Shown piece by piece: positions 10,488 through 27,338 of a stretch of 64,000 bases of DNA. A model generated the notes under the pieces. The model was not told the DNA's origin. It did no database searches and saw only the letters and a program-made list of their open reading frames with translations. Origin of the DNA: an uncultured Gammaproteobacteria bacterium (GTDB lineage Bacteria; Patescibacteriota; Patescibacteriia; VMEV01; CAYQCH01); assembly GCA_964503955.1 (NCBI GenBank), contig CAZDCG010000001.1:2962-66961 (forward strand), given 5' to 3'. Each line of letters begins with the position of its first letter. The first letter of the stretch is position 1. The position numbers and the translations under genes are program-made.

Positions 10488-11219
10488 CACATAATCTGCC
10501 CGACGGGCAAGTCAAATGCAGTAACCTCGTCATAAAATAATGCAAGCCCGTCAGGAATTGCTTCCAAACGGGCTCTGTAAAAACACTGTAATGCATTTTA
10601 ATTTGTTACGGCGCCGGGAAAGTACCCTGACACCGGAACACCCACACACCAACCCTGTTGCCAGGTCTTGGCTCGGACCTTTTCGTTTACGGCACGCCAC
10701 GAGGCGAACCGCAGGCTTCCCTCCCCATCGGGGTCCGGAGGGAACATCCGCAGAATATGCGGATGCCGTTAAGGGATTTACGTGATTTGGCGATCACGAC
10801 CCGGGGTTTTTTGCACCCCACCTTACTCCGCCCGTGAACAGACACATTTGGGAGAAGCGGAGTATATGCATTGAGGATTTTCCAGCTCTACCCTGGCTGC
10901 ACAGGATAACGCTGACGGAACGAGCCCGCCTAGCAGCAGACACCAGCCATTGGTGCTTTTGTCGCCCCGGTCGATGACCGAAGCCGCGGGATATAAGGAT
11001 TGTCGGCTTGTTTCATCAGGAACGGCATCCCGATGGCGAGAGATGAGCCATTTTCCCGGACCAAACTCGCGTATCCGGGGTTTTTGGTAAACGGATTGAG
11101 AATGAACCCCTTCGTCCCTGCATGGACTTTGAGGATCGCGGGCTTGCAGCCTACGACAAGTGATGGTGACAAACCCCACAGACTTTGTCAAGCCCCACAG
11201 CTATGCTTCTTCTCTAAAA

Positions 11220-18561: not shown

Positions 18562-20319
18562 TTACCGCTTCAGCTCCTTCTTTCGAAGACGTACCGATTC
18601 AGGCGTAATCTCAAGAAGTTCATCCTCAGACATGATTTCAAGCCCGGTTTCAATGGTCAGCGGAGTGGGAGGAGTCAGCTTGAGCGCATCATCAGAGCCT
18701 GAAGCGCGCATATTGGTCAGCTGCTTTCCTTTGGTTGGATTAACGAACATATCTTCGCCTTTGCTGACATCGCCGATCACCATGCCTTCATACACATCCA
18801 CATTCGGACCAATATAGAGGGTTCCCCGATCCTGCAGATTATCCAACGCGTATCCAAGCGCTTTGCCGGAAAGCATGGATATCATAGAGCCGACATCGCG
18901 GCGTTCAATCTCTCCGACATGCGGACGGAAATCAATCACGCGCGAAGCCATAATACCTTCGCCGCGGGTATCGATAATGAATTCATGGCGCAAACCAAGC
19001 AGCCCTCGCGTTGGAATTTCAAAGACAAGGCGAGTCGTTCCATGCGCTGATTTCATTTGCGTCATGATGCCTTTGCGCTTGCCGATTTTTTCAATGACTT
19101 TCCCTGTCATTTCTTCGGGCACGTCTATAGTGAGCTCTTCAAACGGCTCTAGGGTCTGCCCGTTTTCTTCTTTGAGAATAACGTGCGGCTGGGACACCTG
19201 CACCTCATACCCTTCCCGGCGCATATTCTCAAGCAAAATCGCAATATGCATTTCCCCTCGTCCGTAAACGGTATAACTGTCTTTCTGGCTGAAGTCGATC
19301 TTCAGTCCGACATTGATTTCAAGCTCTTTTTCAAGGCGCTCTTTGAGCTGGGAATTGGTCACATACTTTCCTTCGCGCCCGGCAAATGGCGAGCTGTTTA
19401 CCATGAATCCAAGCGAGATTGTCGGAGGATCAATCTTAATATGCGGCAAAAGCTCCGCGTCTTCGACATCAGAAACGGTATCGCCGATGAAAATGTCCGG
19501 CAAACCGGCAATCATGACAATGTCGCCGGCATGCGCTTCTTTCACTTCTTCTTTGGCGAATCCATGGAAGGTAAAGATTTTGACGATATTGCCTTTGAAC
19601 TGGGTTCCGTCAACGCGCTTAACGAATACCTGCTGCTTTTCCTTCACTGTTCCTTCATATACGCGCGCCACAGCCATGCGCCCAAGGTAATTGTCGTAGG
19701 CCAGATTGAATGGCTGCATGCGCAAAGGCTTGTCCGTTTCAGAGGGTGCCGGCGCGACTGTTTCAAGAATCGCGTCAAGCAGCGGGTTCATATTATCCGA
19801 TTGCCCATCGAGCGAACGTTTGGCAATACCTTCCTTGCCGATCGCGTAAACGGTTGTAAAATCAAGCTGTTCATCATTGGCGCCAAGATCAATAAAGACT
19901 TCGAGGATCTCATTGATCACTTCCTCCGGCCGTGCAGCGGGTTTATCGATTTTATTGATCACCACAAGCGGCTTCAACCCTAACTCAAGAGACTTTTTCA
20001 AAACGAATTTTGTCTGCGGCATGGGCCCTTCCTGCGCGTCTACCACCAGCACAACCGAATCGATCGATCGCAGAACACGCTCAACCTCTGACCCGAAATC
20101 CGCGTGCCCCGGCGTATCCACGATGTTGATCTTGGTATCCTTATAAAAGAGAGACGCATTTTTCGCGTAAATCGTAATCCCACGTTCCCGCTCAAGCGCG
20201 TTTGAATCCATCGACTGGTTTTCTTCTTTGATCATGCCAGTCTGGCGCAGCAAAGCATCGGTAATGGTTGTCTTACCGTGGTCCACGTGCGCAATGATGG
20301 CGATATTACGGATTTCCAT
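18562..20319 (-). CDS. typA: Translational GTPase TypA/BipA
   Basis: 585 aa. G1 AHVDHGKTT, DTPGH, NKID. EF-G-like domains with the BipA C-terminus. Confidence 0.95.
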   Translation of the reverse strand: MEIRNIAIIAHVDHGKTTITDALLRQTGMIKEENQSMDSNALERERGITIYAKNASLFYKDTKINIVDTPGHADFGSEVERVLRSIDSVVLVVDAQEGPMPQTKFVLKKSLELGLKPLVVINKIDKPAARPEEVINEILEVFIDLGANDEQLDFTTVYAIGKEGIAKRSLDGQSDNMNPLLDAILETVAPAPSETDKPLRMQPFNLAYDNYLGRMAVARVYEGTVKEKQQVFVKRVDGTQFKGNIVKIFTFHGFAKEEVKEAHAGDIVMIAGLPDIFIGDTVSDVEDAELLPHIKIDPPTISLGFMVNSSPFAGREGKYVTNSQLKERLEKELEINVGLKIDFSQKDSYTVYGRGEMHIAILLENMRREGYEVQVSQPHVILKEENGQTLEPFEELTIDVPEEMTGKVIEKIGKRKGIMTQMKSAHGTTRLVFEIPTRGLLGLRHEFIIDTRGEGIMASRVIDFRPHVGEIERRDVGSMISMLSGKALGYALDNLQDRGTLYIGPNVDVYEGMVIGDVSKGEDMFVNPTKGKQLTNMRASGSDDALKLTPPTPLTIETGLEIMSEDELLEITPESVRLRKKELKR

Positions 20320-20463
20320 AGAGTGGTTGCGGGTGGCAAGTTATGAGTTACAAGAATTGAGATGCGAGACGTAAAAGAAAAAGACATGTCGTCTCTGCGA
20401 CATGCATGGAGCGAGTATGGCAGAAAATCCAGATTTTGTCGAGGATAGCACGATCCCGTAAAG

Positions 20464-20489
20464 CAAAAACCGTCCTTCTTGGACGGTTT
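20464..20489. terminator. Bidirectional terminator hairpin 3' of tRNA-Gln (AAAAA-CCGTCC-ttctt-GGACGG-TTTT)
   Basis: Perfect 6-bp GC-rich stem with flanking A/T runs, immediately downstream of the tRNA on the minus strand. Confidence 0.5.
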
Positions 20490-20493
20490 TCAC

Positions 20494-20567
20494 ATGGTTC
20501 CCGGGCAGGGACTCGAACCCCGATACCCAGGACCAAAACCTGGTGTCCTACCATTAGACGACCCGGG
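20494..20567 (-). tRNA. tRNA-Gln (anticodon UUG), CCA encoded
   Basis: Hand-folded cloverleaf: acceptor TCCCGGG/CCCGGGA (U1:A72 as in bacterial tRNA-Gln). D-arm GTCT/GGAC. Anticodon stem CCAGG/CCTGG with loop TTTTGGT. T-arm CGGGG-TTCGAGT-CCCTG. Discriminator A plus CCA. Confidence 0.85.
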
Positions 20568-20811
20568 AGCGAGCAATAAGTTGTTTCTTTTCTTCTCGTC
20601 CGATACCGGACTTTAGATATAGTTCACGATTTCTGGCATCGCTCTCATTTTCAAATGGTTCAGTATGGACTATATCTAAAGGCCTATATCCTTTTGTTGA
20701 TCTCACTTTGCCCTGCTGATGCTCTTTAAACCTGCGATCAATATCTGATGTACAACCAACATATGACCACGGCCGCTTTTCTCTGCTTCTGAGAATATAT
20801 ACATAGAACAT
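20554..20811 (-). CDS. GIY-YIG nuclease (YhbQ/COG2827-like), gene abutting/overlapping the 5' end of tRNA-Gln
   Basis: MFYVYILRSREKRPWSYVGCTSDIDRRFKEHQQGK...RELYLKSG is a GIY-YIG domain. The start is set at MFYVYIL, because the ORF-track extension upstream translates a pseudo-tRNA fragment. The stop lies 14 nt inside the tRNA. Confidence 0.75.
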   Translation of the reverse strand: MFYVYILRSREKRPWSYVGCTSDIDRRFKEHQQGKVRSTKGYRPLDIVHTEPFENESDARNRELYLKSGIGREEKKQLIARSRVV

Positions 20812-20822
20812 ACCATATGGAT

Positions 20823-20905
20823 CCAGGACCCCTGCCTGCCGGCAGGCAGGAAAACCTGGTGTCCTATTTACCCGCCGAAGGAGGGCTATTAGACGACCCG
20901 GGAGC
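20823..20905 (-). pseudogene. Degenerate 5' fragment of tRNA-Gln (acceptor + D-arm + anticodon arm), carrying a D-loop insertion and a 20-nt perfect palindrome in the anticodon loop
   Basis: The reverse complement reads TCCCGGGTCGTCTAAT[AGCCCTCCTTCGGCGGGTAAAT]AGGACACCAGGTTTT[CCTGCCTGCCGGCAGGCAGG]GGTCCTGG. Outside the bracketed insertions it is colinear with tRNA-Gln positions 1-43. There is no T-arm or 3' acceptor. Confidence 0.6.
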
Positions 20906-20974
20906 AATATTGAGTTGTGATATACATATTCCCAGATCCTACCATTCTGCCTAATATAAATGATAATAGCGGCA

Positions 20975-21015
20975 GTCCGCCTTAGGCGGAAGACGACCCG
21001 GGAGCGAGCAATAAG
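20975..21015 (-). repeat. Second duplicated copy of the tRNA-Gln 5' leader + first 13 nt, fused to a CCGCC-TTA-GGCGG hairpin
   Basis: agacgacccgggagcgagcaataag (20991-21015) is 25/25 identical to 20555-20579, the real tRNA 5' end plus 12-nt leader. Confidence 0.6.
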
Positions 21016-21115
21016 CGATGTTCTTTTGTGAGCCTAGAGCAAATAAAAGCAAGGCAATGCGCCAAGCTTTTTCTACATGACAGGTTACATGCCCTGTAAT
21101 GCAAAGTCAATCCTG

Positions 21116-22372
21116 TCAGAGTATGATCGTCGCCAGGCCAAGAAAAAGCAGAAAACCTAAGACATCCGTAGCTGTGGTGATAAAGATCGTCGCGGACGCG
21201 GCGGGGTCCTTTCCAATTCTTTGCATCACAAGCGGCACAAGGGTTCCAAAAATGGCCGCCACAATGAGATTAAAAATCATTGCGATACCAAGAACCAAAG
21301 CCAGCTTGATATCCTGATTCAGCAGAAGAATCACAGCTGCAACCAGGATGCCATTGATCAATCCGTTCACCAACGCCGCGCCGATTTCATTTAACAAGGG
21401 CCGCCAGCAATGTTTTAAATCGATTTCTTTCAGCGCGATTCCTCTCACAAGCACGGCCAGCGTCTGGGTCGCCGCATTCCCTCCCATACCCGCGACAATG
21501 GGCATATACACAGCCAGCAAAACATACTTAGAAATGGTTTCGTCAAAAAGCCGGACAGTAAACGACGCGAGAAATGCCGTGGCAAGATTGATCATCAGCC
21601 ATTTATAGCGGAATCGAACTTTAACAAGAGCTCTGTCCGTGACGGACTCCTCATCATGGACACCGGCGAAATCATACAAAGAAGCCGATTCCAATTCTTC
21701 CATGGCACGTAAGACATCGTCTGAATAGATGATCCCAAGAACATTTCCATGATTGCCGATAACAACAACCTTGGCATGCGGATTCTGTTTGAACGTTTTT
21801 AGCACCGAGGAAAGTTCTGCATCATGAAAAACAGCGGGGATTTTTTTAACGAATTTTCTTACAAATTGCGTAGACCTCGCAAAAACAAGTTCATGCACAG
21901 GGACGATACCGGCGAGCTTGCCGTCTCTCATGGCAACAATAACCGGCGCTCTGCCGGTCCGCTTTTCATGTGCCTTAAACTTTTTTCCCACGGTGGAAAC
22001 TTTATCTGTGTCACTCACCAGAATATAGTCGATATGCATCAAACCGGCTGCCGTTTTCGGATCAAACTTGGCGAGCAATTCGACTCCGCTTCTAAGCGTT
22101 TCGCTTAACCGAAGAATAATATTGGAACGGCGTTCCGGGGGCAAAATCTGAATAAGATCCGTTGCCTCATCAGGATCAAGGTGCTCCAATACATCGATCA
22201 AGTCTTCATCAGGAAGCTGCCGTGCAAGATCGCGCTGAATGCGCTTTGTCAAACGAAGCATCACATGGGCGCGCAAATCATGATCCATGCTCAAAAAAAT
22301 TTGCAGCCGTTCTTTGGGGCGCAAGCTGAGATAGCGGACAAGATCAAGATTTGTTTTACGATGATTGCGCAT
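21116..22372 (-). CDS. mgtE: Magnesium transporter MgtE
   Basis: MgtE N-domain, tandem CBS domains, and the C-terminal 5-TM channel (FGTLVPLVMQRIGKDPAASATIFITTATDVLGF). Confidence 0.93.
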   Translation of the reverse strand: MRNHRKTNLDLVRYLSLRPKERLQIFLSMDHDLRAHVMLRLTKRIQRDLARQLPDEDLIDVLEHLDPDEATDLIQILPPERRSNIILRLSETLRSGVELLAKFDPKTAAGLMHIDYILVSDTDKVSTVGKKFKAHEKRTGRAPVIVAMRDGKLAGIVPVHELVFARSTQFVRKFVKKIPAVFHDAELSSVLKTFKQNPHAKVVVIGNHGNVLGIIYSDDVLRAMEELESASLYDFAGVHDEESVTDRALVKVRFRYKWLMINLATAFLASFTVRLFDETISKYVLLAVYMPIVAGMGGNAATQTLAVLVRGIALKEIDLKHCWRPLLNEIGAALVNGLINGILVAAVILLLNQDIKLALVLGIAMIFNLIVAAIFGTLVPLVMQRIGKDPAASATIFITTATDVLGFLLFLGLATIIL

Positions 22373-22376
22373 AGAA

Positions 22377-22949
22377 TCACCTGGTCTTCAGATATCTCTG
22401 AACCCCGAGAGCGGAGAGGGCGGCCGCCCCCAGGGTGGCCAGATAGACTGTTAAGATGGCTGCTAACGATGCCGAAAATGATCGCGGAAGCATACCGAGC
22501 AGGAAAACACTAAACCAGGATGTGACGGAAATCGCTCCGCAAAGAAATGCCATTCTTGTTCCGCCTGCCAACTCCGCTTTCTGCGGTGTATGGCGTTTTC
22601 CAAAATAAATTCTCGTTAAGGTCGGGTGGATGCGGAAATGAAGAATCAATCCGTTTATGATGACAACCAGGAGAATCAGCAGTTTAGCGATGAACTTATC
22701 TGAAGCAAGCAAGGCTGCCGGATGGGCCATAAACAGCAAACCGCCGGAAACAATAGCGAGGAAGAGCCCAAACCATACCGAGTAGGAAACATTCTTTAGC
22801 ACGTTTGCTTCAAACCGGGAGATCCGCATATCCTTGAGAAAACGGAAAAACAACGTATCCGCCACAATCGCCGCTCCAAAGCCGATCACAACGCCAAGTA
22901 CATGCAGTATTAAGAAGTACTGCCGAAATTGCCCGGCTAGTTCAACCAT
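22377..22949 (-). CDS. Hypothetical 4-TM membrane protein
   Basis: Hydrophobic segments only; no recognisable motif. Confidence 0.45.
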   Translation of the reverse strand: MVELAGQFRQYFLILHVLGVVIGFGAAIVADTLFFRFLKDMRISRFEANVLKNVSYSVWFGLFLAIVSGGLLFMAHPAALLASDKFIAKLLILLVVIINGLILHFRIHPTLTRIYFGKRHTPQKAELAGGTRMAFLCGAISVTSWFSVFLLGMLPRSFSASLAAILTVYLATLGAAALSALGVQRYLKTR

Positions 22950-22954
22950 AGATG

Positions 22955-23872
22955 CTAAACGCGAGAATACTTCCGCGTGGCCAAAATGCTTGCAATGCTT
23001 AGCAGCAGAATCAACCCGCCAAGCTGCAAACCGAAAAGGTAGAGAAAGTTTACGTTGAAAAACGCAACCAGATCTATTGCGGCTGTATCCACAAACAGTT
23101 CATTGATATACGGCTGCATAAATCCAAGAATCGGATACCAGATGCCGATGAAGATTGCCATGGCAAAGACCGCGTATAAAATGCTTCCCCAGATATACGG
23201 AAAACGGATAAACCAGTTGGTTGCCCCCACCAAACGCATAATCGCGATTTCATCCCGATGCGTATAGATGATGATACGAAGCGTATTAAATACCACAAGA
23301 ACGGCAATAAGTGTGAACAGAACCGTAAAAACGGTGGCAATACTTCGTACCCGCTCGCTGATCGTTGAAACTCGCTCAATAATATAAGTATGTTCGTCAA
23401 AGCTCTTGTCCGCCACAACAGCATCATAACGGTCCTCTTCAAGCAGGCTTACAATCGGCGCATAATCCTGCGTGCTCTGCGCCTGGACAATCAGCTGCGC
23501 GCCAAGAGGGTTCTCCCCAAGCTCCTGCAGGGATTGAATGATAACCGGATCGGATTGATGGCGGTTGATCATTGACTCAAGCGATTCCTGAGCAGAGATA
23601 TAAATCACTTCCTTTACCTGCGGCAAGCCAAGCAGCCGTGAGCGAAGATCAAGAATCGCGGTTTCCTCAACACCCGGATTGATAAAAACGCTGACATCGA
23701 TCTTCTTTTCAATGGTCTGCAGGGTGTATTCGCTGATGGTTCGAATCAAAATCAAACTGTTGAAGCTGAACAGAGCAAGAAGAACGACCGTGACGGTGAT
23801 TAAAGAAAGCCAGAAATTTCTCCAGAAATCCTGGAGCGCGTATTTTGCCGTTCTGGAGAGAAATGTAAGCAT
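22955..23872 (-). CDS. ftsX: Cell-division ABC transporter permease FtsX
   Basis: 305 aa with an N-terminal TM, a large extracytoplasmic loop, and 3 C-terminal TM helices (FtsX architecture). Sits immediately downstream of ftsE. Confidence 0.85.
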   Translation of the reverse strand: MLTFLSRTAKYALQDFWRNFWLSLITVTVVLLALFSFNSLILIRTISEYTLQTIEKKIDVSVFINPGVEETAILDLRSRLLGLPQVKEVIYISAQESLESMINRHQSDPVIIQSLQELGENPLGAQLIVQAQSTQDYAPIVSLLEEDRYDAVVADKSFDEHTYIIERVSTISERVRSIATVFTVLFTLIAVLVVFNTLRIIIYTHRDEIAIMRLVGATNWFIRFPYIWGSILYAVFAMAIFIGIWYPILGFMQPYINELFVDTAAIDLVAFFNVNFLYLFGLQLGGLILLLSIASILATRKYSRV

Positions 23873-23878
23873 AGAAAA

Positions 23879-24559
23879 TTAGAGAGAATATTTCGCGGCT
23901 TCCTGATCGCGGACAACTTGGCCATGTTCCATCACGATCACGCGACGGCGCAGTGAATTCACGATATCGCGGTCATGCGTCATTAAAATGACGGTCGTTC
24001 CAAATTCATTGATTTTTTTCAGCAGATCCAATATTTCCTGCGCATTGATCGTATCAAGATTTCCGGTTGGTTCATCCGCGATAAGAATCTTTGGACGATG
24101 GGCAAGCGCTCTGGCAATGGCCACGCGCTGCGATTCTCCGCCAGAGATTTCATTAGGATACCGCTTCCCTTTTCCTCCAAGCCCGACGATATTCAGCAAT
24201 GGCTCGGTCACCTGTTTGATCTTTTTCTTTGGCATGCCGGCCACTTCCAGCGCATAGGCGACGTTTTCTTCAACGGTTTTTCCTTCAAGCAGGTTGAAAT
24301 CCTGGTAGACGACCCCGATCTGCCTTCGCAAATACGGAATTTCGTAATTCTTGATGTCCGTAATATCCCAGCCTCCTACAATGATCTGCCCTTTGCTTGG
24401 TTTTTCCTGAGCGATAAGCAGCTTTGAAAACGTTGTTTTCCCCGCACCGCTTTGGCCGATGAGAGAGACGAATTCCTTTGGCTGAATGCGCACGCTCACA
24501 TCAAGCAGCGCATGAACATCTCCTGGGTACGATTTGCTGACGCCTTTAAAGTGAATCAT
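23879..24559 (-). CDS. ftsE: Cell-division ATP-binding protein FtsE
   Basis: Walker A GQSGAGKTT, ABC signature ISGGESQRVAIARAL, Walker B ILIADEPTGNLD. Confidence 0.93.
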   Translation of the reverse strand: MIHFKGVSKSYPGDVHALLDVSVRIQPKEFVSLIGQSGAGKTTFSKLLIAQEKPSKGQIIVGGWDITDIKNYEIPYLRRQIGVVYQDFNLLEGKTVEENVAYALEVAGMPKKKIKQVTEPLLNIVGLGGKGKRYPNEISGGESQRVAIARALAHRPKILIADEPTGNLDTINAQEILDLLKKINEFGTTVILMTHDRDIVNSLRRRVIVMEHGQVVRDQEAAKYSL

Positions 24560-25455
24560 AGACTGTCTTCCGTTTGTACTCCGTATAAATTAGGCAACCC
24601 CTCATTTTCAAACGTTGTTTCGTCCATCAGATAAGGAACCACCCGGACCTGCGTCAGTCCGCGCCATTTTTCGGTAAGCTGCTCAAAAGCGAACAAATCA
24701 AGATCAATAATGCGCCCGGTCCATTCCTCAGGTCCGTAGTCATTTACCTCGATGATAACGCTTTTCTCCGTATGCAGGTCGGTCACTTCAAGCAATGTTC
24801 CAGGCGGGTAATGCCGTGAAGCCGCGCAGTTGCAATTGTGATATCGGTACCAGCTTGCTTCGCCTTCCGTTGGAATAATTTCGGAGAGAACAGCCATAGG
24901 GGCATAGGTCAAATGAATAGCCGCGCGCAGCGACTGATCTGCTTTATGATCCGTGGTTGGGATAGCAACCCATTCCTGTCTGCCTTTGTCCCAGAAGTAG
25001 ACACCGCGGTTGACCTGTGTTGCGGCGGGATAATGAACGCGCAGCCAAAGCGGCAAGGACGGATCATAGAGATCCGCCGCTCCTTTGATATCAAATTCGT
25101 AAATCGGCGTGACAATCTGCATGCCGTCAGGCACGTTCCAGTCGACCTGAAGCCGCGATGATTCCTGTTCATCCACAGCGGTCGCGCCTACGCGGAAAAT
25201 TTTCTCTTCAATGTAATCGACATGGTCGAACACTTTGATCGTAACATCAGTTTCCCCTTTCAGCACGCCAGGGAGAACGCCCACATGAAAATGATCGTCC
25301 GGCGTGGATACGGTATATCCAAGTTCGATGGTTGGAGCGTCAAAACTCCAGGTATGCAGCTCCCCCTTTGCAAGCTCCTGAGCTGAAGCAATTGCAGCTA
25401 TCGCAAAAACCGACACCAAAGCCGAGGGCAGCATGAATAAAAGTTTCCTTCGCAT
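24556..25455 (-). CDS. RlpA-like double-psi beta-barrel (DPBB) lipoprotein/secreted protein
   Basis: The C-terminus EGEASWYRYH...GTLLEVTDLHTEKSVIIEVNDYGPEEWTGRIIDLDLFAFEQL matches the RlpA/expansin-like DPBB. Signal peptide MRRKLLFMLPSALVSVFAIAAIASA. The start is moved to this Met; the upstream 96 codons of the ORF-track model look spurious. Confidence 0.65.
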   Translation of the reverse strand: MRRKLLFMLPSALVSVFAIAAIASAQELAKGELHTWSFDAPTIELGYTVSTPDDHFHVGVLPGVLKGETDVTIKVFDHVDYIEEKIFRVGATAVDEQESSRLQVDWNVPDGMQIVTPIYEFDIKGAADLYDPSLPLWLRVHYPAATQVNRGVYFWDKGRQEWVAIPTTDHKADQSLRAAIHLTYAPMAVLSEIIPTEGEASWYRYHNCNCAASRHYPPGTLLEVTDLHTEKSVIIEVNDYGPEEWTGRIIDLDLFAFEQLTEKWRGLTQVRVVPYLMDETTFENEGLPNLYGVQTEDSL

Positions 25456-25515
25456 AGTATTTGTAGTAAGATTATAGCATATCCAGTTCTCCACAGGAGA
25501 ACGCATTCGCAAACA

Positions 25516-26046
25516 ATGCCGAAAACAAAAAAACCTGCGGTCTCCAAGCGAAAACCGCAGCGAAAAACAAAAGGCCTCATTTGGACGGAGCAGCACCTGG
25601 CAGTCAAAGCGCTCATGGAGGAAGAGCTTCATGGGCTTTTGCACTATCTGCGTTCTATTCATTACCTCGCCGTTGTTCTCCTGCTCGCGTCCATCGCAAC
25701 GCTCTTTTACGCGCTCAGCGTGATTTTTCAAAATGACCATACGGCTGTTGTCGGCTTTCTCATGGTGATTTTCACCTCATTAACCGTTTCCATCATCTCC
25801 GTCTGGACGCTCAAGCCCTGGATCATGCCTCGCTTTCTGCTGCCCATCGACATGAATGAGCTTGATCTTTCCCAGCTCCTCACCCTCTTCAATAGTCCCG
25901 AAGAATATCTGAACCTGCTCAAATCCCATACGCAATTATTGACCGAGCAATATCTGATCGTAAAACTCCGCCGTTTACGCATGGCAATCCTCTTCTTTGT
26001 TTTCGGCGCGGCTGTCGCTATCTTGCTTTCGATTGCTGTTCCTTAA
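25516..26046 (+). CDS. Hypothetical membrane protein (basic N-terminus, 3-4 TM)
   Basis: ORF divergent from the RlpA-like gene. No motif. Confidence 0.4.
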   Translation: MPKTKKPAVSKRKPQRKTKGLIWTEQHLAVKALMEEELHGLLHYLRSIHYLAVVLLLASIATLFYALSVIFQNDHTAVVGFLMVIFTSLTVSIISVWTLKPWIMPRFLLPIDMNELDLSQLLTLFNSPEEYLNLLKSHTQLLTEQYLIVKLRRLRMAILFFVFGAAVAILLSIAVP

Positions 26047-26116
26047 ATCTTGATTTTGCTCCAAATTTTTGTTACATTATCCATACATGAGCGCAGAGAG
26101 GCGCTCTCTTTATTTG

Positions 26117-26137
26117 CCGACGTAGCTCAGCCGGTAC
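26117..26137 (+). other. tRNA 5'-half-like fragment (acceptor + D-arm: GCCGACGTAGCTCAGCCGGTA) upstream of GIY-YIG gene
   Basis: Matches tRNA-Thr positions 1-21 at 16/21 nt. It is followed by a GC hairpin and AAGGAG 8 nt before the GIY-YIG ATG. Confidence 0.45.
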
Positions 26138-26186
26138 CCTCCGCCCATCGCTCACGCTTAGAGCCGGCGGGCAAGGAGCAATCATT

Positions 26187-26435
26187 ATGCTGGAAGACTT
26201 TTATTATACCTACGTCTTGCTGTGTGCTGATGATATGCTCTATATTGGCTATACTGATAACCTGCCTCAACGAATGCAAGCGCATCAAGATGGACTTGTT
26301 ACCGCGACAAAAAAACGTCGACCGATGCGCCTTGTCTATTTCGAAGCATGCACCAGTCAGAAAAGCGCAATAAAGAGAGAAAAATACTTCAAAACAGGCT
26401 TTGGACGTTCATTCCTCAAAAAGAGATTATCTTAA
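26187..26435 (+). CDS. GIY-YIG nuclease (YhbQ/COG2827-like), stop codon directly abutting tRNA-Thr
   Basis: YTYVLLCADDMLYIGYTDNLPQRMQAHQDG...REKYFKTG. AAGGAG Shine-Dalgarno 8 nt upstream. The TAA stop at 26433-26435 and tRNA nucleotide 1 at 26436. Confidence 0.8.
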   Translation: MLEDFYYTYVLLCADDMLYIGYTDNLPQRMQAHQDGLVTATKKRRPMRLVYFEACTSQKSAIKREKYFKTGFGRSFLKKRLS

Positions 26436-26511
26436 GCCACCTTAGCTCAGCTGGTAGAGCAATGCTTTCGTAAAGCAGAGGTCGGCGGTTCGAATCCGCC
26501 AGGTGGCTCCA
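26436..26511 (+). tRNA. tRNA-Thr (anticodon CGU), CCA encoded
   Basis: Acceptor GCCACCT/AGGTGGC. D-arm GCTC-AGCTGGTA-GAGC. Anticodon arm with loop TTCGTAA (U33, A37). Variable AGGTC. T-arm GGCGG-TTCGAAT-CCGCC. Discriminator T, then CCA. Confidence 0.85.
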
Positions 26512-26860
26512 TTTCATACATAACATCCCCTGCCCGCCTGTGTTGACGAGCGTTAGCGAGAATGCACGGCGGGGCCAGGTGGCTCCATTTCGTACATAAC
26601 ATCCCCTGCCCGCCAGTGCTGACGAGCGTTAGCGAGGATGCACGGCGGGGCCAGGTGGCTCCATTTCATACATAACATCCCCTGCCCGCCTGTGTTGACG
26701 AGCGTTAGCGAGAATGCACGGCGGGGCCAGGTGGCTCCATTTCATACACAACGCCCTCTAATCGTCTCCAGTAACCAAGCAAGGCGACTACATATCATCC
26801 CCTGCCCGCCTGTGCTGACGAGCGATCAACGACGGCGTGCGGGAGGCCATTCTCAAACAA
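26496..26860 (+). repeat. Tandem direct repeat, ~76-bp unit x 3 full + 1 degenerate copy, each unit starting with the last 16 nt of tRNA-Thr
   Basis: The string ccaggtggctcca recurs at 26500, 26575, 26651 and 26727. The unit is the tRNA 3' end, then an AT-rich 16-mer, then the hairpin CCCGCC-N29-GGCGGG. The ORF 26638..26874 is an artefact of the repeat. Confidence 0.8.
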
Positions 26861-26880
26861 GACAACAAGAGTAATACATC

Positions 26881-26916
26881 AAAAAACAGCCCGCATGATG
26901 AGGCTGCTTTTTGTTT
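26881..26916. terminator. Bidirectional terminator hairpin (CAGCCC-gcatgatga-GGCTG, A/T flanks)
   Basis: Between the repeat array and the ftsB-like gene end. Confidence 0.45.
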
Positions 26917-26923
26917 CGTTCAA

Positions 26924-27334
26924 TCAACTTTGAAAGAAATAGCGCCACCACAAAACCGGGTTTGAAGCGCCTTCCTCTTGCTTATACGAATACGACGGTT
27001 CCTCAAAAAGCCCGGGCTCCTCATTTGGCGGTTCATCGGTAATCACGATCATCTTTTCGCCCGGCTTTTTCAGTCCCAGTTTTAACCGCGCCTGCTCTTC
27101 AAATGAATTTTCCGTTTTAAGGAATTCAACAAATCTTGAAAAATCATTGGTCTTCACTTCCAATTCAGTAATCTCCTGTTCAAGAGCCTGGATTTCCTGT
27201 TTGATCTGGTAACTTCGCATCAATTCCTTGACGAGGGACGCAGAAATCAGGAGAAATAAAACCGCCAGGGTCAACAGAAACCAGCGTGAGAAAAACCAAT
27301 GCTGCCTTCTTTCCTGGCGGCTTCGCGGTCGCAT
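26924..27334 (-). CDS. ftsB: Septum formation initiator family protein (FtsB/DivIC-like)
   Basis: Single N-terminal TM, then a coiled coil (YQIKQEIQALEQEITELEVK) and FtsB-like LKLGLKKPGEKMIVI. Confidence 0.7.
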   Translation of the reverse strand: MRPRSRQERRQHWFFSRWFLLTLAVLFLLISASLVKELMRSYQIKQEIQALEQEITELEVKTNDFSRFVEFLKTENSFEEQARLKLGLKKPGEKMIVITDEPPNEEPGLFEEPSYSYKQEEGASNPVLWWRYFFQS

Positions 27335-27338
27335 AGTG

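Follow-up and report, generated by a model that had tools for sequence, protein, structure and literature searches.

A stretch of 64,000 nucleotides (nt) from an uncultured bacterium that the GTDB places in the Patescibacteriota (contig CAZDCG010000001.1, positions 2,962 to 66,961 of the forward strand; hereafter the window) contains two transfer RNA (tRNA) genes, and both of them carry a small cassette, in which a truncated copy of the tRNA gene, a GC-rich hairpin and a short open reading frame (ORF) for a GIY-YIG protein precede the intact tRNA. We found that this architecture recurs at tRNA genes of many types and in many phyla, that its distribution is sporadic, that the proteins form clades following the type of the tRNA, and that a 20-nt palindrome is conserved in it and placed in the loops of the tRNA. 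We consider it probable that the cassette is a minimal selfish element of the homing type, which uses tRNA sequence as homology arms while an intact tRNA is kept or brought along.

At the first of the two genes, the minus strand reads MgtE, copy 1, copy 2, the ORF, tRNA-Gln, a terminator and TypA, with the following features:

20495..20568, minus strand: intact tRNA-Gln(TTG), encoded CCA included (ARAGORN and Rfam RF00005, 59.4 bits)
20554..20811, minus strand: GIY-YIG ORF of 85 amino acids, Slx1-like or UPF0213-type (PF01541, E 2.4e-12)
20823..20903, minus strand: copy 2, a truncated tRNA-Gln (positions 1-43) with two hairpin inserts, directly upstream of the ORF (read from the sequence)
20831..20850, no strand assigned: the 20-nt perfect palindrome CCTGCCTGCCGGCAGGCAGG, called PAL, between anticodon positions 35 and 36 of copy 2
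20867..20887, minus strand: 21-nt GC-rich degenerate hairpin-like insert that replaces GG in the D-loop of copy 2 (by comparison with the intact tRNA)
20931..21030, minus strand: copy 1, a more decayed and older unit (25-nt exact repeat, 10-nt repeat TCCTACCATT, hairpin fold)
20466..20490, minus strand: probable intrinsic terminator after tRNA-Gln (10-bp perfect inverted repeat, then the T run TTTTTGCTTT)

The ORF runs from an ATG at 20811 to a stop at 20554, scores 47.4 bits against PF01541 (cut-off 22.6 bits) and shares its final 15 nt, TAA included (...SRVV*), with positions 1-15 of tRNA-Gln. The same overlap is common to the Gln-linked homologues, twelve of which have −15 and one −16. Copy 2 is composed of tRNA positions 1-16, the 21-nt insert, positions 19-35, PAL and positions 36-43; it shares an exact 16-nt repeat with the intact tRNA (20851-20866 and 20535-20550), and its layout is found again in L001, L005, L007-L014, L016, L134 and L159, loci of the comparisons described below. 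Folded as a single strand, PAL stacks onto the retained anticodon stem of copy 2 and gives one extended arm. Copy 1 begins with a leader like the 3' end of the ORF, followed by tRNA positions 1-13, the hairpin TCCGCCTAAGGCGGA (20976-20990), a 29-nt filler, tRNA positions 14-23 (AATGGTAGGA, 20937-20946) and a remnant; an exact 25-mer (20991-21015) repeats the junction of ORF end and tRNA start at 20556-20580. Because the leader of copy 1 resembles the ORF 3' end, as is also the case in L134 and L151, the two degenerate tRNA-Gln fragments are best read as earlier generations of the cassette.

These elements lie within 1-2 nt of where a first-pass annotation of the DNA had put them (20494-20567 for the tRNA, 20 nt for the D-loop insert), and the overlap of the ORF with the tRNA 5' end, the palindrome in the anticodon loop of copy 2 and the terminator all stand as described there. 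In copy 1, the 25-nt repeat and the hairpin had been seen, but not the continuation into tRNA positions 14-23. A 117-amino-acid gene model, which begins at TTG 20907, does translate the pseudo-tRNA as had been stated, and PAL along with it. The terminator was not among the results of a consensus terminator scan. Inside the ORF (20602-20690) lies a 25-nt inverted repeat, 84% complementary and common to L005 and L011; as a conserved hairpin it was discarded, its frequency among 93 ORFs being no higher than in codon-shuffled controls. Three independent assemblies of the window's strain (L087, L088, L089) are 100% identical to it and broken in the cassette region at or near repeated tRNA 5' sequence, so that such repeats evidently fragment short-read assemblies. 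A search for polymorphism within the strain gave nothing, four other contigs being 100% identical across the overlap.

The same architecture, already noticed in the first pass, is found at the second tRNA gene:

26116..26176, plus strand: tRNA 5' fragment GCCGACGTAGCTCAGCCGGTA (26116-26136), then a CCGCC...GGCGGG hairpin, upstream of the second ORF
26187..26435, plus strand: second GIY-YIG ORF of 82 amino acids, from a distant clade in the tree (PF01541, E 1.8e-15, 57.4 bits)
26436..26511, plus strand: intact tRNA-Thr(CGT) (ARAGORN; Rfam, 66.3 bits)
26498..26850, plus strand: three 76-nt tandem units and a fourth, degenerate unit (repeat families D1 and D2)

Here the ORF, which has more than 420 homologues, ends precisely at position +1 of tRNA-Thr, and the 5' fragment has just 81% identity to the local tRNA (acceptor strand GCCGACG versus GCCACCT). 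The order of fragment, hairpin and ORF is repeated in the homologous locus L246. Each of the 76-nt units behind the tRNA combines the tRNA-Thr 3' end CCAGGTGGCTCCA with a CCCGCC...GGCGGG hairpin; hairpins followed by a tRNA 3'-end fragment form a comparable pattern in L245 and L005. The hairpin arm CCCTGCCCGCC of the repeats is the reverse complement of the arm GGCGGGCAAGG (26166-26176) upstream of the ORF. On the minus strand, three near-identical ORFs of 40-51 amino acids (MLCTKWSHLAPPCILANARQH..., 26447-26751) are read-throughs of the repeats and the tRNA-Thr antisense strand and not genes.

A genome scan, for which we used an alignment of ten sequences as query and one genome per species, gave 80 loci with 95 ORFs in Patescibacteria, Bacteroidota, Marinimicrobia, Nitrospirae, Omnitrophota, Balneolaceae, Saganbacteria, Bacillota and unclassified metagenome-assembled genomes, the cultured carriers including Flavobacterium, Pedobacter, Polaribacter, Salegentibacter, Aureibaculum and Lutimonas. 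An intact tRNA on the same strand adjoins 76 of the 95 ORFs, at the stop codon in 61 cases, at the start codon in 14 and on both sides in one, and the tRNA is of the Gln, Arg, Leu, Ser, Cys, Asn, Pro, Ala, Lys, Thr, Met or Gly type. If the juxtaposition seen in the window were a coincidence, as the first-pass annotation had considered, relatives would lie apart from tRNA genes and the fragments would not recur; the linkage just given and the fragments present in most loci are the opposite of this. The spacing is constrained as well. ORF and tRNA overlap at a few fixed values (−15 for Gln, −23 or −10 for Arg, about 0 for Leu), and most loci have 229-258 nt from the start of the ORF to that of the tRNA. 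Of the other 19 ORFs, at least five belong to a separate clade, whose members start 105-135 nt downstream of a tRNA; further ones are the first in tandem arrays or lie at contig ends. The separate clade (L037, L063, L065, L072 and L085, at about 2865-2940) is found behind tRNAs for Gly, His and Lys, with the motif GAGTCAAACTCG beginning 1-3 nt past the tRNA 3' end and, in L065 and L085, an inverted partner CGAGTTTGACTC some 60 nt beyond this motif.

In most loci in which the tRNA lies downstream, the 5' part of the local tRNA is duplicated upstream of the start codon (p<=0.005 versus shuffles). The fragment typically extends to about the end of the anticodon loop, and into the T-arm in L009, L011, L014 and L023. 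The loci L001 and L005 repeat the window's order with a truncated tRNA that matches the local tRNA-Gln, an identical PAL, the ORF and an intact tRNA starting 15 nt before the stop. The homologues found for the Gln-linked protein, about 85 amino acids in length, are from Patescibacteria; several of their gene models carry an N-terminal extension that translates the tRNA-Gln fragment and PAL (...GSSNGRTPGFPACRQAGVL...). L005 (2990-3060) lacks an ATG where the ORF usually begins; its called gene instead begins with an ATG within the fragment's anticodon stem and continues across PAL, which may be an alternative start or the mark of a decaying copy.

The reverse order exists, too. In the mirror form (L032, L040, L042, L055, L080) the intact tRNA comes first, then the ORF and then a 3' fragment with PAL at T-loop position 56/57 or 53/54. 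Additionally, 10 of the 56 loci with a downstream tRNA retain a 3' fragment beyond it, which begins at about T-loop position 57 in several loci (L012, L016, L022) and is preceded by PAL or a PAL-like hairpin in L005, L022 and L031. The first-pass annotation had proposed a mobile, homing-like cassette specific for tRNA 5' halves. The specificity is contradicted by the mirror form and the retained 3' fragments, while the mobile, tRNA-targeting cassette is supported by the tRNA linkage, the recurrent fragments and the empty sites that we describe below.

The mirror form also bears on a different reading, already raised in part by the first-pass annotation, in which fragment and hairpin are a cis-regulatory RNA leader and RNase P, acting at the boundary of ORF and tRNA, controls or releases the nuclease mRNA. 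It is very likely that ORF and tRNA share one transcript. Indeed, the sole good promoter of L001 (TTGACT, 17 nt, TATCAT) is found upstream of the fragment, where empty loci have the tRNA promoter, and the fold of PAL with the retained anticodon stem would suit a structured leader. However, the mirror form puts fragment and PAL downstream of the ORF, the distance from PAL to the start codon varies between 9 and about 80 nt, and PAL is strictly conserved in sequence and does not covary as would be expected of an RNA stem. Most fragments are without the 3' acceptor strand and hence no RNase P substrates, and with the stop codon inside the tRNA, cleavage at +1 would give an mRNA without a stop codon, not a complete one. 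No Rfam family matches the region. We hold such a leader to be very improbable.

Several loci hold repeated, nested or decayed units of the cassette. Tandem arrays of ORF and tRNA are present in L008, L015, L020, L042, L049, L071 and L076. In L015, a unit of tRNA positions 1-21, a PAL variant, positions 22-38 and the ORF stands twice in succession, followed by the intact tRNA and a terminator and then by positions 10-21, a PAL variant, positions 22-76 and a further terminator. The locus L246 (1400-2080) is nested: an intact tRNA-Val(CAC) lies between the hairpin arms GCCCGCCCACC and GGTGGGCGGG in the D-loop of a second tRNA-Val, and this second tRNA-Val together with a GIY-YIG ORF lies within a third, the 5' end of which is found upstream and the 3' end (ATGCGTCCACCA) downstream. 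The acceptor stems differ among all three tRNA-Val genes. In L134, the last 60 nt of the ORF precede the tRNA fragment. Finally, L151 (about 2740-2818) has 79 nt extra before its tRNA-Gln but no ORF, while its sibling L154 is empty at this site (about 10500-10514). The extra sequence consists of tRNA positions 1-12, a 37-nt hairpin insert, positions 13-20 and a 23-nt remnant like the ORF 3' end, so that L151 looks like a cassette relic that is without its ORF; L115 holds a similar remnant.

Partial tRNA copies of this kind could be thought of as ordinary attachment-site scars of integrase-mediated islands or prophages that target tRNA genes, because integration at a tRNA gene typically leaves a complete and a partial tRNA at the ends of the element (PMC9897764). 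Such islands, for which that source cites Reiter 1989 and Williams 2002, share the target with our cassette; they measure 9-120 kilobases (kb), carry an integrase of the tyrosine or serine type and duplicate mainly the tRNA's 3' part (PMC9897764). The cassette, unlike them, is about 0.3 kb in size, with 0.25-0.5 kb between the two copies. It has a lone 85-amino-acid nuclease ORF of the hydrolytic kind and no integrase, it occurs in 5' and 3' forms with the 5' part most often the partial one, it carries a hairpin in the partial copy, and the same architecture is repeated at about 70 loci. For known integrases, Williams in 2002 reportedly described crossover at the anticodon loop or the T-loop as well. 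We give next to no credit to the attachment-site explanation.

How the cassette is distributed was examined on an unbiased sample of tRNA-Gln(TTG) genes, picked by a pattern on the tRNA 3' half. Among 66 loci with at least 350 nt of upstream sequence, the gene is present at two (L134, L159). Cassette-free sites, which the first-pass annotation had suggested as a check, do exist: in 15 loci, FtsX and tRNA-Gln are syntenic with no cassette in the gap of 146-281 nt, whereas the corresponding site is filled in L134 and L001, all such comparisons at orthologous sites being between species and not within one. The protein clades follow the tRNA type and not the host phylum. Proteins linked to the same tRNA in different phyla share 49.8% identity versus 43.5% for different tRNAs within the same phylum, and in 59 of 74 cases a protein and its nearest neighbour go with one tRNA type, where about 17 are expected by chance. 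The Leu clade of the tree mixes Patescibacteria, Nitrospirae, Balneolaceae, Bacteroidota and Saganbacteria, and both arrangements. Compared with L005, the window shows 84% identity for FtsE, 75% for FtsX and 64% for the GIY-YIG protein; with L001, the values are 59%, 37% and 56.5%. The GIY-YIG protein thus stays at 56-64% while FtsX moves between 37 and 75%, showing that its divergence is uncoupled from that of the host.

Each Gln fragment is nearest to its own tRNA (0.9 versus 6.6 mismatches per 42 nt), which points to recent duplication, to ongoing gene conversion or to fragment and tRNA moving as a unit. At filled loci, tRNA-Gln is more divergent than at empty ones in every bin of FtsX identity, in a small sample taken without phylogenetic correction. 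In the closest pair, the window (20495-20568) and L005 (3286-3359), 11 of 74 positions of tRNA-Gln differ, and the acceptor and anticodon stems are changed on both of their strands. Such a rate of change is unusually high for a tRNA, and it is consistent with replacement of the tRNA together with the cassette.

One may ask whether the nuclease is instead a host gene riding in tRNA operons, where it would serve the repair or upkeep of highly transcribed tRNA loci, with the fragments arising by local slippage or duplication and no horizontal mobility at all. A 2006 survey of GIY-YIG proteins, in which no tRNA linkage is reported, predicts bacterial Slx1-like proteins to be repair enzymes of mainly vertical descent (PMC1564403). 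Intact, conserved ORFs would suit a host gene, as would the occupation of one and the same syntenic tRNA-Gln site in several Patescibacteria, and the match of each fragment to its own tRNA is what local duplication predicts. Presence at just two of 66 comparable loci, clades that track the tRNA type across phyla and a divergence uncoupled from the host are nevertheless hard to reconcile with such a role. The tandem arrays, the nesting of tRNAs and the remnants without an ORF are what selfish DNA typically produces, and an identical 20-nt palindrome across phyla is difficult to obtain by independent slippage. We therefore regard the host-gene explanation as improbable.

The palindrome had been taken in the first pass for a local feature of one fragment; it turned out to be a conserved hallmark across phyla and tRNA types. 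Exact PAL is found within 200 nt of 41 of the 95 ORFs (39 of the first 85 loci retrieved have it) and PAL-like hairpins near 64. We collected 31 clean 20-nt insertions, for which the 8-nt flanks are contiguous in the local tRNA. None shows a target duplication, and all 31 sit at unpaired positions of the cloverleaf, with not a single one in a stem. PAL or a variant stands after position 21 (Arg, Leu, Asn, Pro), at 35/36 (Gln), at 31/32 in one Arg(TCG) subclade and at 9/10 in some loci; sites 31/32 and 44/45 were assigned by eye. PAL remains exact although the ORFs have diverged to 40-60% identity, from which we conclude that it is under selection, and since its distance from the ORF varies and it can stand on either side of it, this selection is not for signals of ORF expression. 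For the same reasons, namely its downstream position in the mirror form and the variable distance to the start codon, a promoter, operator or ribosome-binding element of the ORF was rejected. Other hairpins recur as well. The CCGCC-NNN-GGCGG type occurs in copy 1 of the window and in L021, L059 and L246, whose hairpins the 21-nt D-loop insert of copy 2 resembles; the CCCGCC...GGCGGG type occurs at the tRNA-Thr locus of the window, in L245 and in L246.

In the 64 kb of the window, PAL is present once (0.00 expected from 100 shuffles), also when up to three mismatches are allowed, so that a dispersed repetitive element of this genome was dismissed. A scan of viral contigs also ruled out that PAL is exclusive to the cassette. 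It gave 42 exact sites in 35 stretches (L210-L244), and L241, the sole stretch with the gene, has the standard layout. PAL is thus not simply a component of this cassette. It has an existence of its own, and the nuclease may be linked to it in trans. Among the candidate roles, which are a hairpin or dimer site for the nuclease, an element junction and an independent, very small mobile element, we prefer that of a cis-acting hairpin or dimer site which the nuclease would recognise.

Some of the viral sites lie in tRNA genes. In L234 (2239-2330), PAL is placed in the variable loop of a phage tRNA-Met that is otherwise intact and that ARAGORN calls as a 92-nt tRNA; the hairpin may be tolerated as an additional tRNA arm. 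In L211 (about 8616), PAL is likewise found in the variable loop of a phage tRNA-Met, the sequence diverges after PAL and ARAGORN calls no tRNA. The other viral sites are in intergenic GC-rich DNA, often among tandem short (heptamer-like) repeats, and PAL also occurs there in the loops of larger hairpins, nested in PAL variants or flanked by direct repeats of 7-14 nt. One 29.5-kb viral contig (L230, L237, L238) contains six copies.

These observations allow the roles to be turned around, with the hairpin as the mobile unit. Tiny palindromic elements like PAL would enter single-stranded loops, the GIY-YIG protein would act in trans as a structure-specific nuclease, much as in the RAYT and REP/REPIN systems, and the tRNA pseudo-copies would be landing pads that are tolerated. 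Such a unit would explain the precise insertion of PAL at unpaired tRNA positions with no target duplication, its nesting in PAL variants and larger hairpins, its exact sequence beside much diverged ORFs and its presence at 41 viral sites without the gene, including the phage tRNA-Met variable loops of L234 and L211. The hairpin arms of L246, which enclose an intact tRNA in the manner of terminal inverted repeats with their cargo, and the relatedness to Slx1-type structure-specific nucleases (PMC1564403; PDB matches) fit as well. Nonetheless, a single PAL in 64 kb and bacterial sites almost only within the cassette are unlike a dispersed family, a hydrolytic GIY-YIG nuclease alone is unable to paste DNA, and the tight packing of ORF and tRNA as well as the tRNA-type clades would be left unexplained. 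As a full account, we find the hairpin as mobile unit rather unlikely; it may complement the homing-type cassette instead of replacing it. A bolder reading is likewise rather unlikely in our view. It would be a minimal mobile element of a new class, which pairs a 20-nt hairpin with a structure-specific GIY-YIG nuclease of the bare Slx1-like kind, acts on the single-stranded DNA loops of a cloverleaf-folded tRNA gene, splits the resident tRNA and installs a replacement, being addictive in this way and free of transposase and integrase, while the hairpin also spreads in trans, including into phage genomes and phage tRNAs.

In an alignment of 31 sequences of the protein family, the catalytic-type residues do not vary at the Tyr of GIY (Y5), the Tyr and Gly of YIG (Y17, G19), H31 and the metal-binding Glu (E63), while R27 reaches at least 90% conservation, which suggests that the protein is under selection. 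The same alignment contains no invariant or near-invariant Asn; the C-terminal Asn typical of the UvrC and homing-endonuclease lineage (PMC1564403) is missing. The family profile matches the PDB entries 1zg2 (E 1.1e-9) and 1ywl (E 2.9e-7) and, weakly, SLX1 (7cq2, 6seh; about 5e-3). The proteins comprise 78-92 amino acids, and the 85-amino-acid one of the window is nearly all catalytic domain with no extra DNA-binding region. An exhaustive HMMER search gave 4,939 clusters (50% identity) at E<=1e-3. Among the best 150 family representatives, 85 have 98 or more amino acids, and eleven carry translated PAL (PACRQAG or LPAGRQ) at one of the termini, N or C. Like the 117-amino-acid model of the window, such over-long models, which read on through tRNA fragments and PAL, are apparently a widespread artefact of the public databases. 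The protein matched no PHROG family at E<=1e-3 and had no match in NCBIfam. A defence system was considered and discarded, as PADLOC returned just one weak match (E 0.007) and NCBIfam nothing.

For the homing-type cassette that we favour, we propose the following course. The nuclease would break a cassette-free tRNA gene of the same type, probably at the junction positions seen in the loci, i.e., at D-loop position 21/22, in the anticodon loop or at T-loop position 53/54 or 56/57. Repair would then copy the cassette-bearing allele, for which the truncated tRNA on one side and the intact tRNA on the other would serve as portable homology arms. As a complete tRNA would be regenerated or brought in, the essential gene would survive. 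The ORF would presumably be transcribed from the tRNA promoter. In most loci with a downstream tRNA the stop codon lies within the tRNA, so RNase P cleavage would remove the end of the ORF and perhaps restrict how much nuclease is made. Tandem arrays and nested tRNAs could arise from repeated rounds and unequal recombination, and superseded copies would lose the ORF and gather hairpin inserts; the two degenerate tRNA-Gln fragments of the window would be such remains.

A number of points weigh against this proposal. The activity of the nuclease, its cleavage site and the transfer itself are steps that we infer. Among 80 tRNA-Gln loci, no near-identical filled and empty pair was found for a cassette with its ORF, the ORF-less pair L151/L154 being the only one of its kind, and the exact boundaries of the element are therefore undefined. 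The intact tRNA stands directly beside the gene; if it is the target, the avoidance of self-cleavage needs explaining. It is hard to picture how 85 amino acids without a separate DNA-binding domain recognise one type of tRNA. The sporadic distribution could also be compatible with ancient presence and frequent loss. Furthermore, 41 of the 42 viral PAL sites are without the gene in cis, with one family member in 331 kb, a collection of isolated phages is nearly devoid of the family (one distant match among 50,697 phage records), and a plasmid collection gave distant matches only, so that no transfer vector is evident.

The closest experimentally studied precedent is SegB, a tRNA-associated GIY-YIG homing endonuclease from the tRNA gene clusters of T-even phages, which cuts within the tRNA region, drives its preferential inheritance and yields tandem repeats of tRNA and truncated segB by microhomology of the tRNA 5' end with the 3' end of segB (PMC2330249; PMC13096335). 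Both systems place a GIY-YIG gene among tRNA genes with a statistical association, and the SegB repeats closely parallel the arrays of ORF and tRNA and the ORF 3'-end remnants upstream of the fragments. The cassette differs in that it is chromosomal (Patescibacteria, Bacteroidota and other phyla), overlaps the tRNA and is flanked by a truncated copy of the same tRNA with a conserved palindrome. SegB is reportedly about 220 amino acids long, with a DNA-binding region beyond the catalytic domain. The phage encodes it as a site-specific endonuclease (PMC2330249; PMC13096335), whereas the cassette protein is a bare Slx1-like domain of 80-90 amino acids, for which the PHROG families and the isolated phages revealed, beyond one distant match, no relationship in sequence to Seg or other phage proteins.

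With the repetitive extragenic palindromes (REPs), REPINs and their RAYT genes, the cassette has in common a short GC-rich palindrome beside a single small nuclease-type gene, and nested insertions (PMC3116915). RAYT is, however, an HUH/Y1 transposase and not a GIY-YIG protein, and REPs are highly dispersed within one genome (PMC3116915), in contrast to the single PAL of the window. The viral PAL sites, in tandem short-repeat tracts and self-nested, are reminiscent of the small dispersed repeats of cyanobacteria. Elhai in 2008 is said to have described these repeats in tandem short-repeat tracts and nested. We know of no tRNA link for REPs. Group I introns in tRNA genes of Patescibacteria (PMC13011429) are mobile insertions into the same kind of gene in the same phylum, and elsewhere such introns often carry GIY-YIG homing endonucleases. 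In the cassette, the functional tRNA is uninterrupted and nothing has to be spliced; a group I intron or other known RNA family was excluded, as Rfam at E<=1 over 19500-28000 gave the two tRNAs only. UPF0213 or Slx1-like proteins (COG2827; PDB 1zg2, 1ywl) belong to the same family by profile, sharing the minimal GIY-YIG domain without the conserved C-terminal Asn, but this family has no established function or rule of genomic context, unlike the tRNA-linked cassette. Our literature searches, the palindrome as a text string included, found no description of the cassette or of the palindrome, in agreement with the first-pass annotation, which knew of none either. We place the cassette with free-standing homing-type nuclease elements that target tRNA genes, which are of a known kind, although the prospect of a mechanism without precedent is a real one.

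The cultured carriers Flavobacterium, Pedobacter, Polaribacter and Salegentibacter make the model directly testable. If it is true, the small bacterial GIY-YIG proteins (UPF0213/COG2827) would receive their first functional and genomic-context rule. With about 0.3 kb, the cassette would be among the smallest self-propagating DNA elements known, and it would have solved the problem of insertion into an essential gene by carrying or regenerating that gene. The palindrome and its loop-only insertion would point to a nuclease that works on folded single-stranded DNA, with possible uses as a tool. The cassette would also account for tRNA pseudo-fragments, over-long gene models and assembly breaks in genomes of Patescibacteria and Bacteroidota, and it would bear on how tRNA genes are split, nested or replaced.

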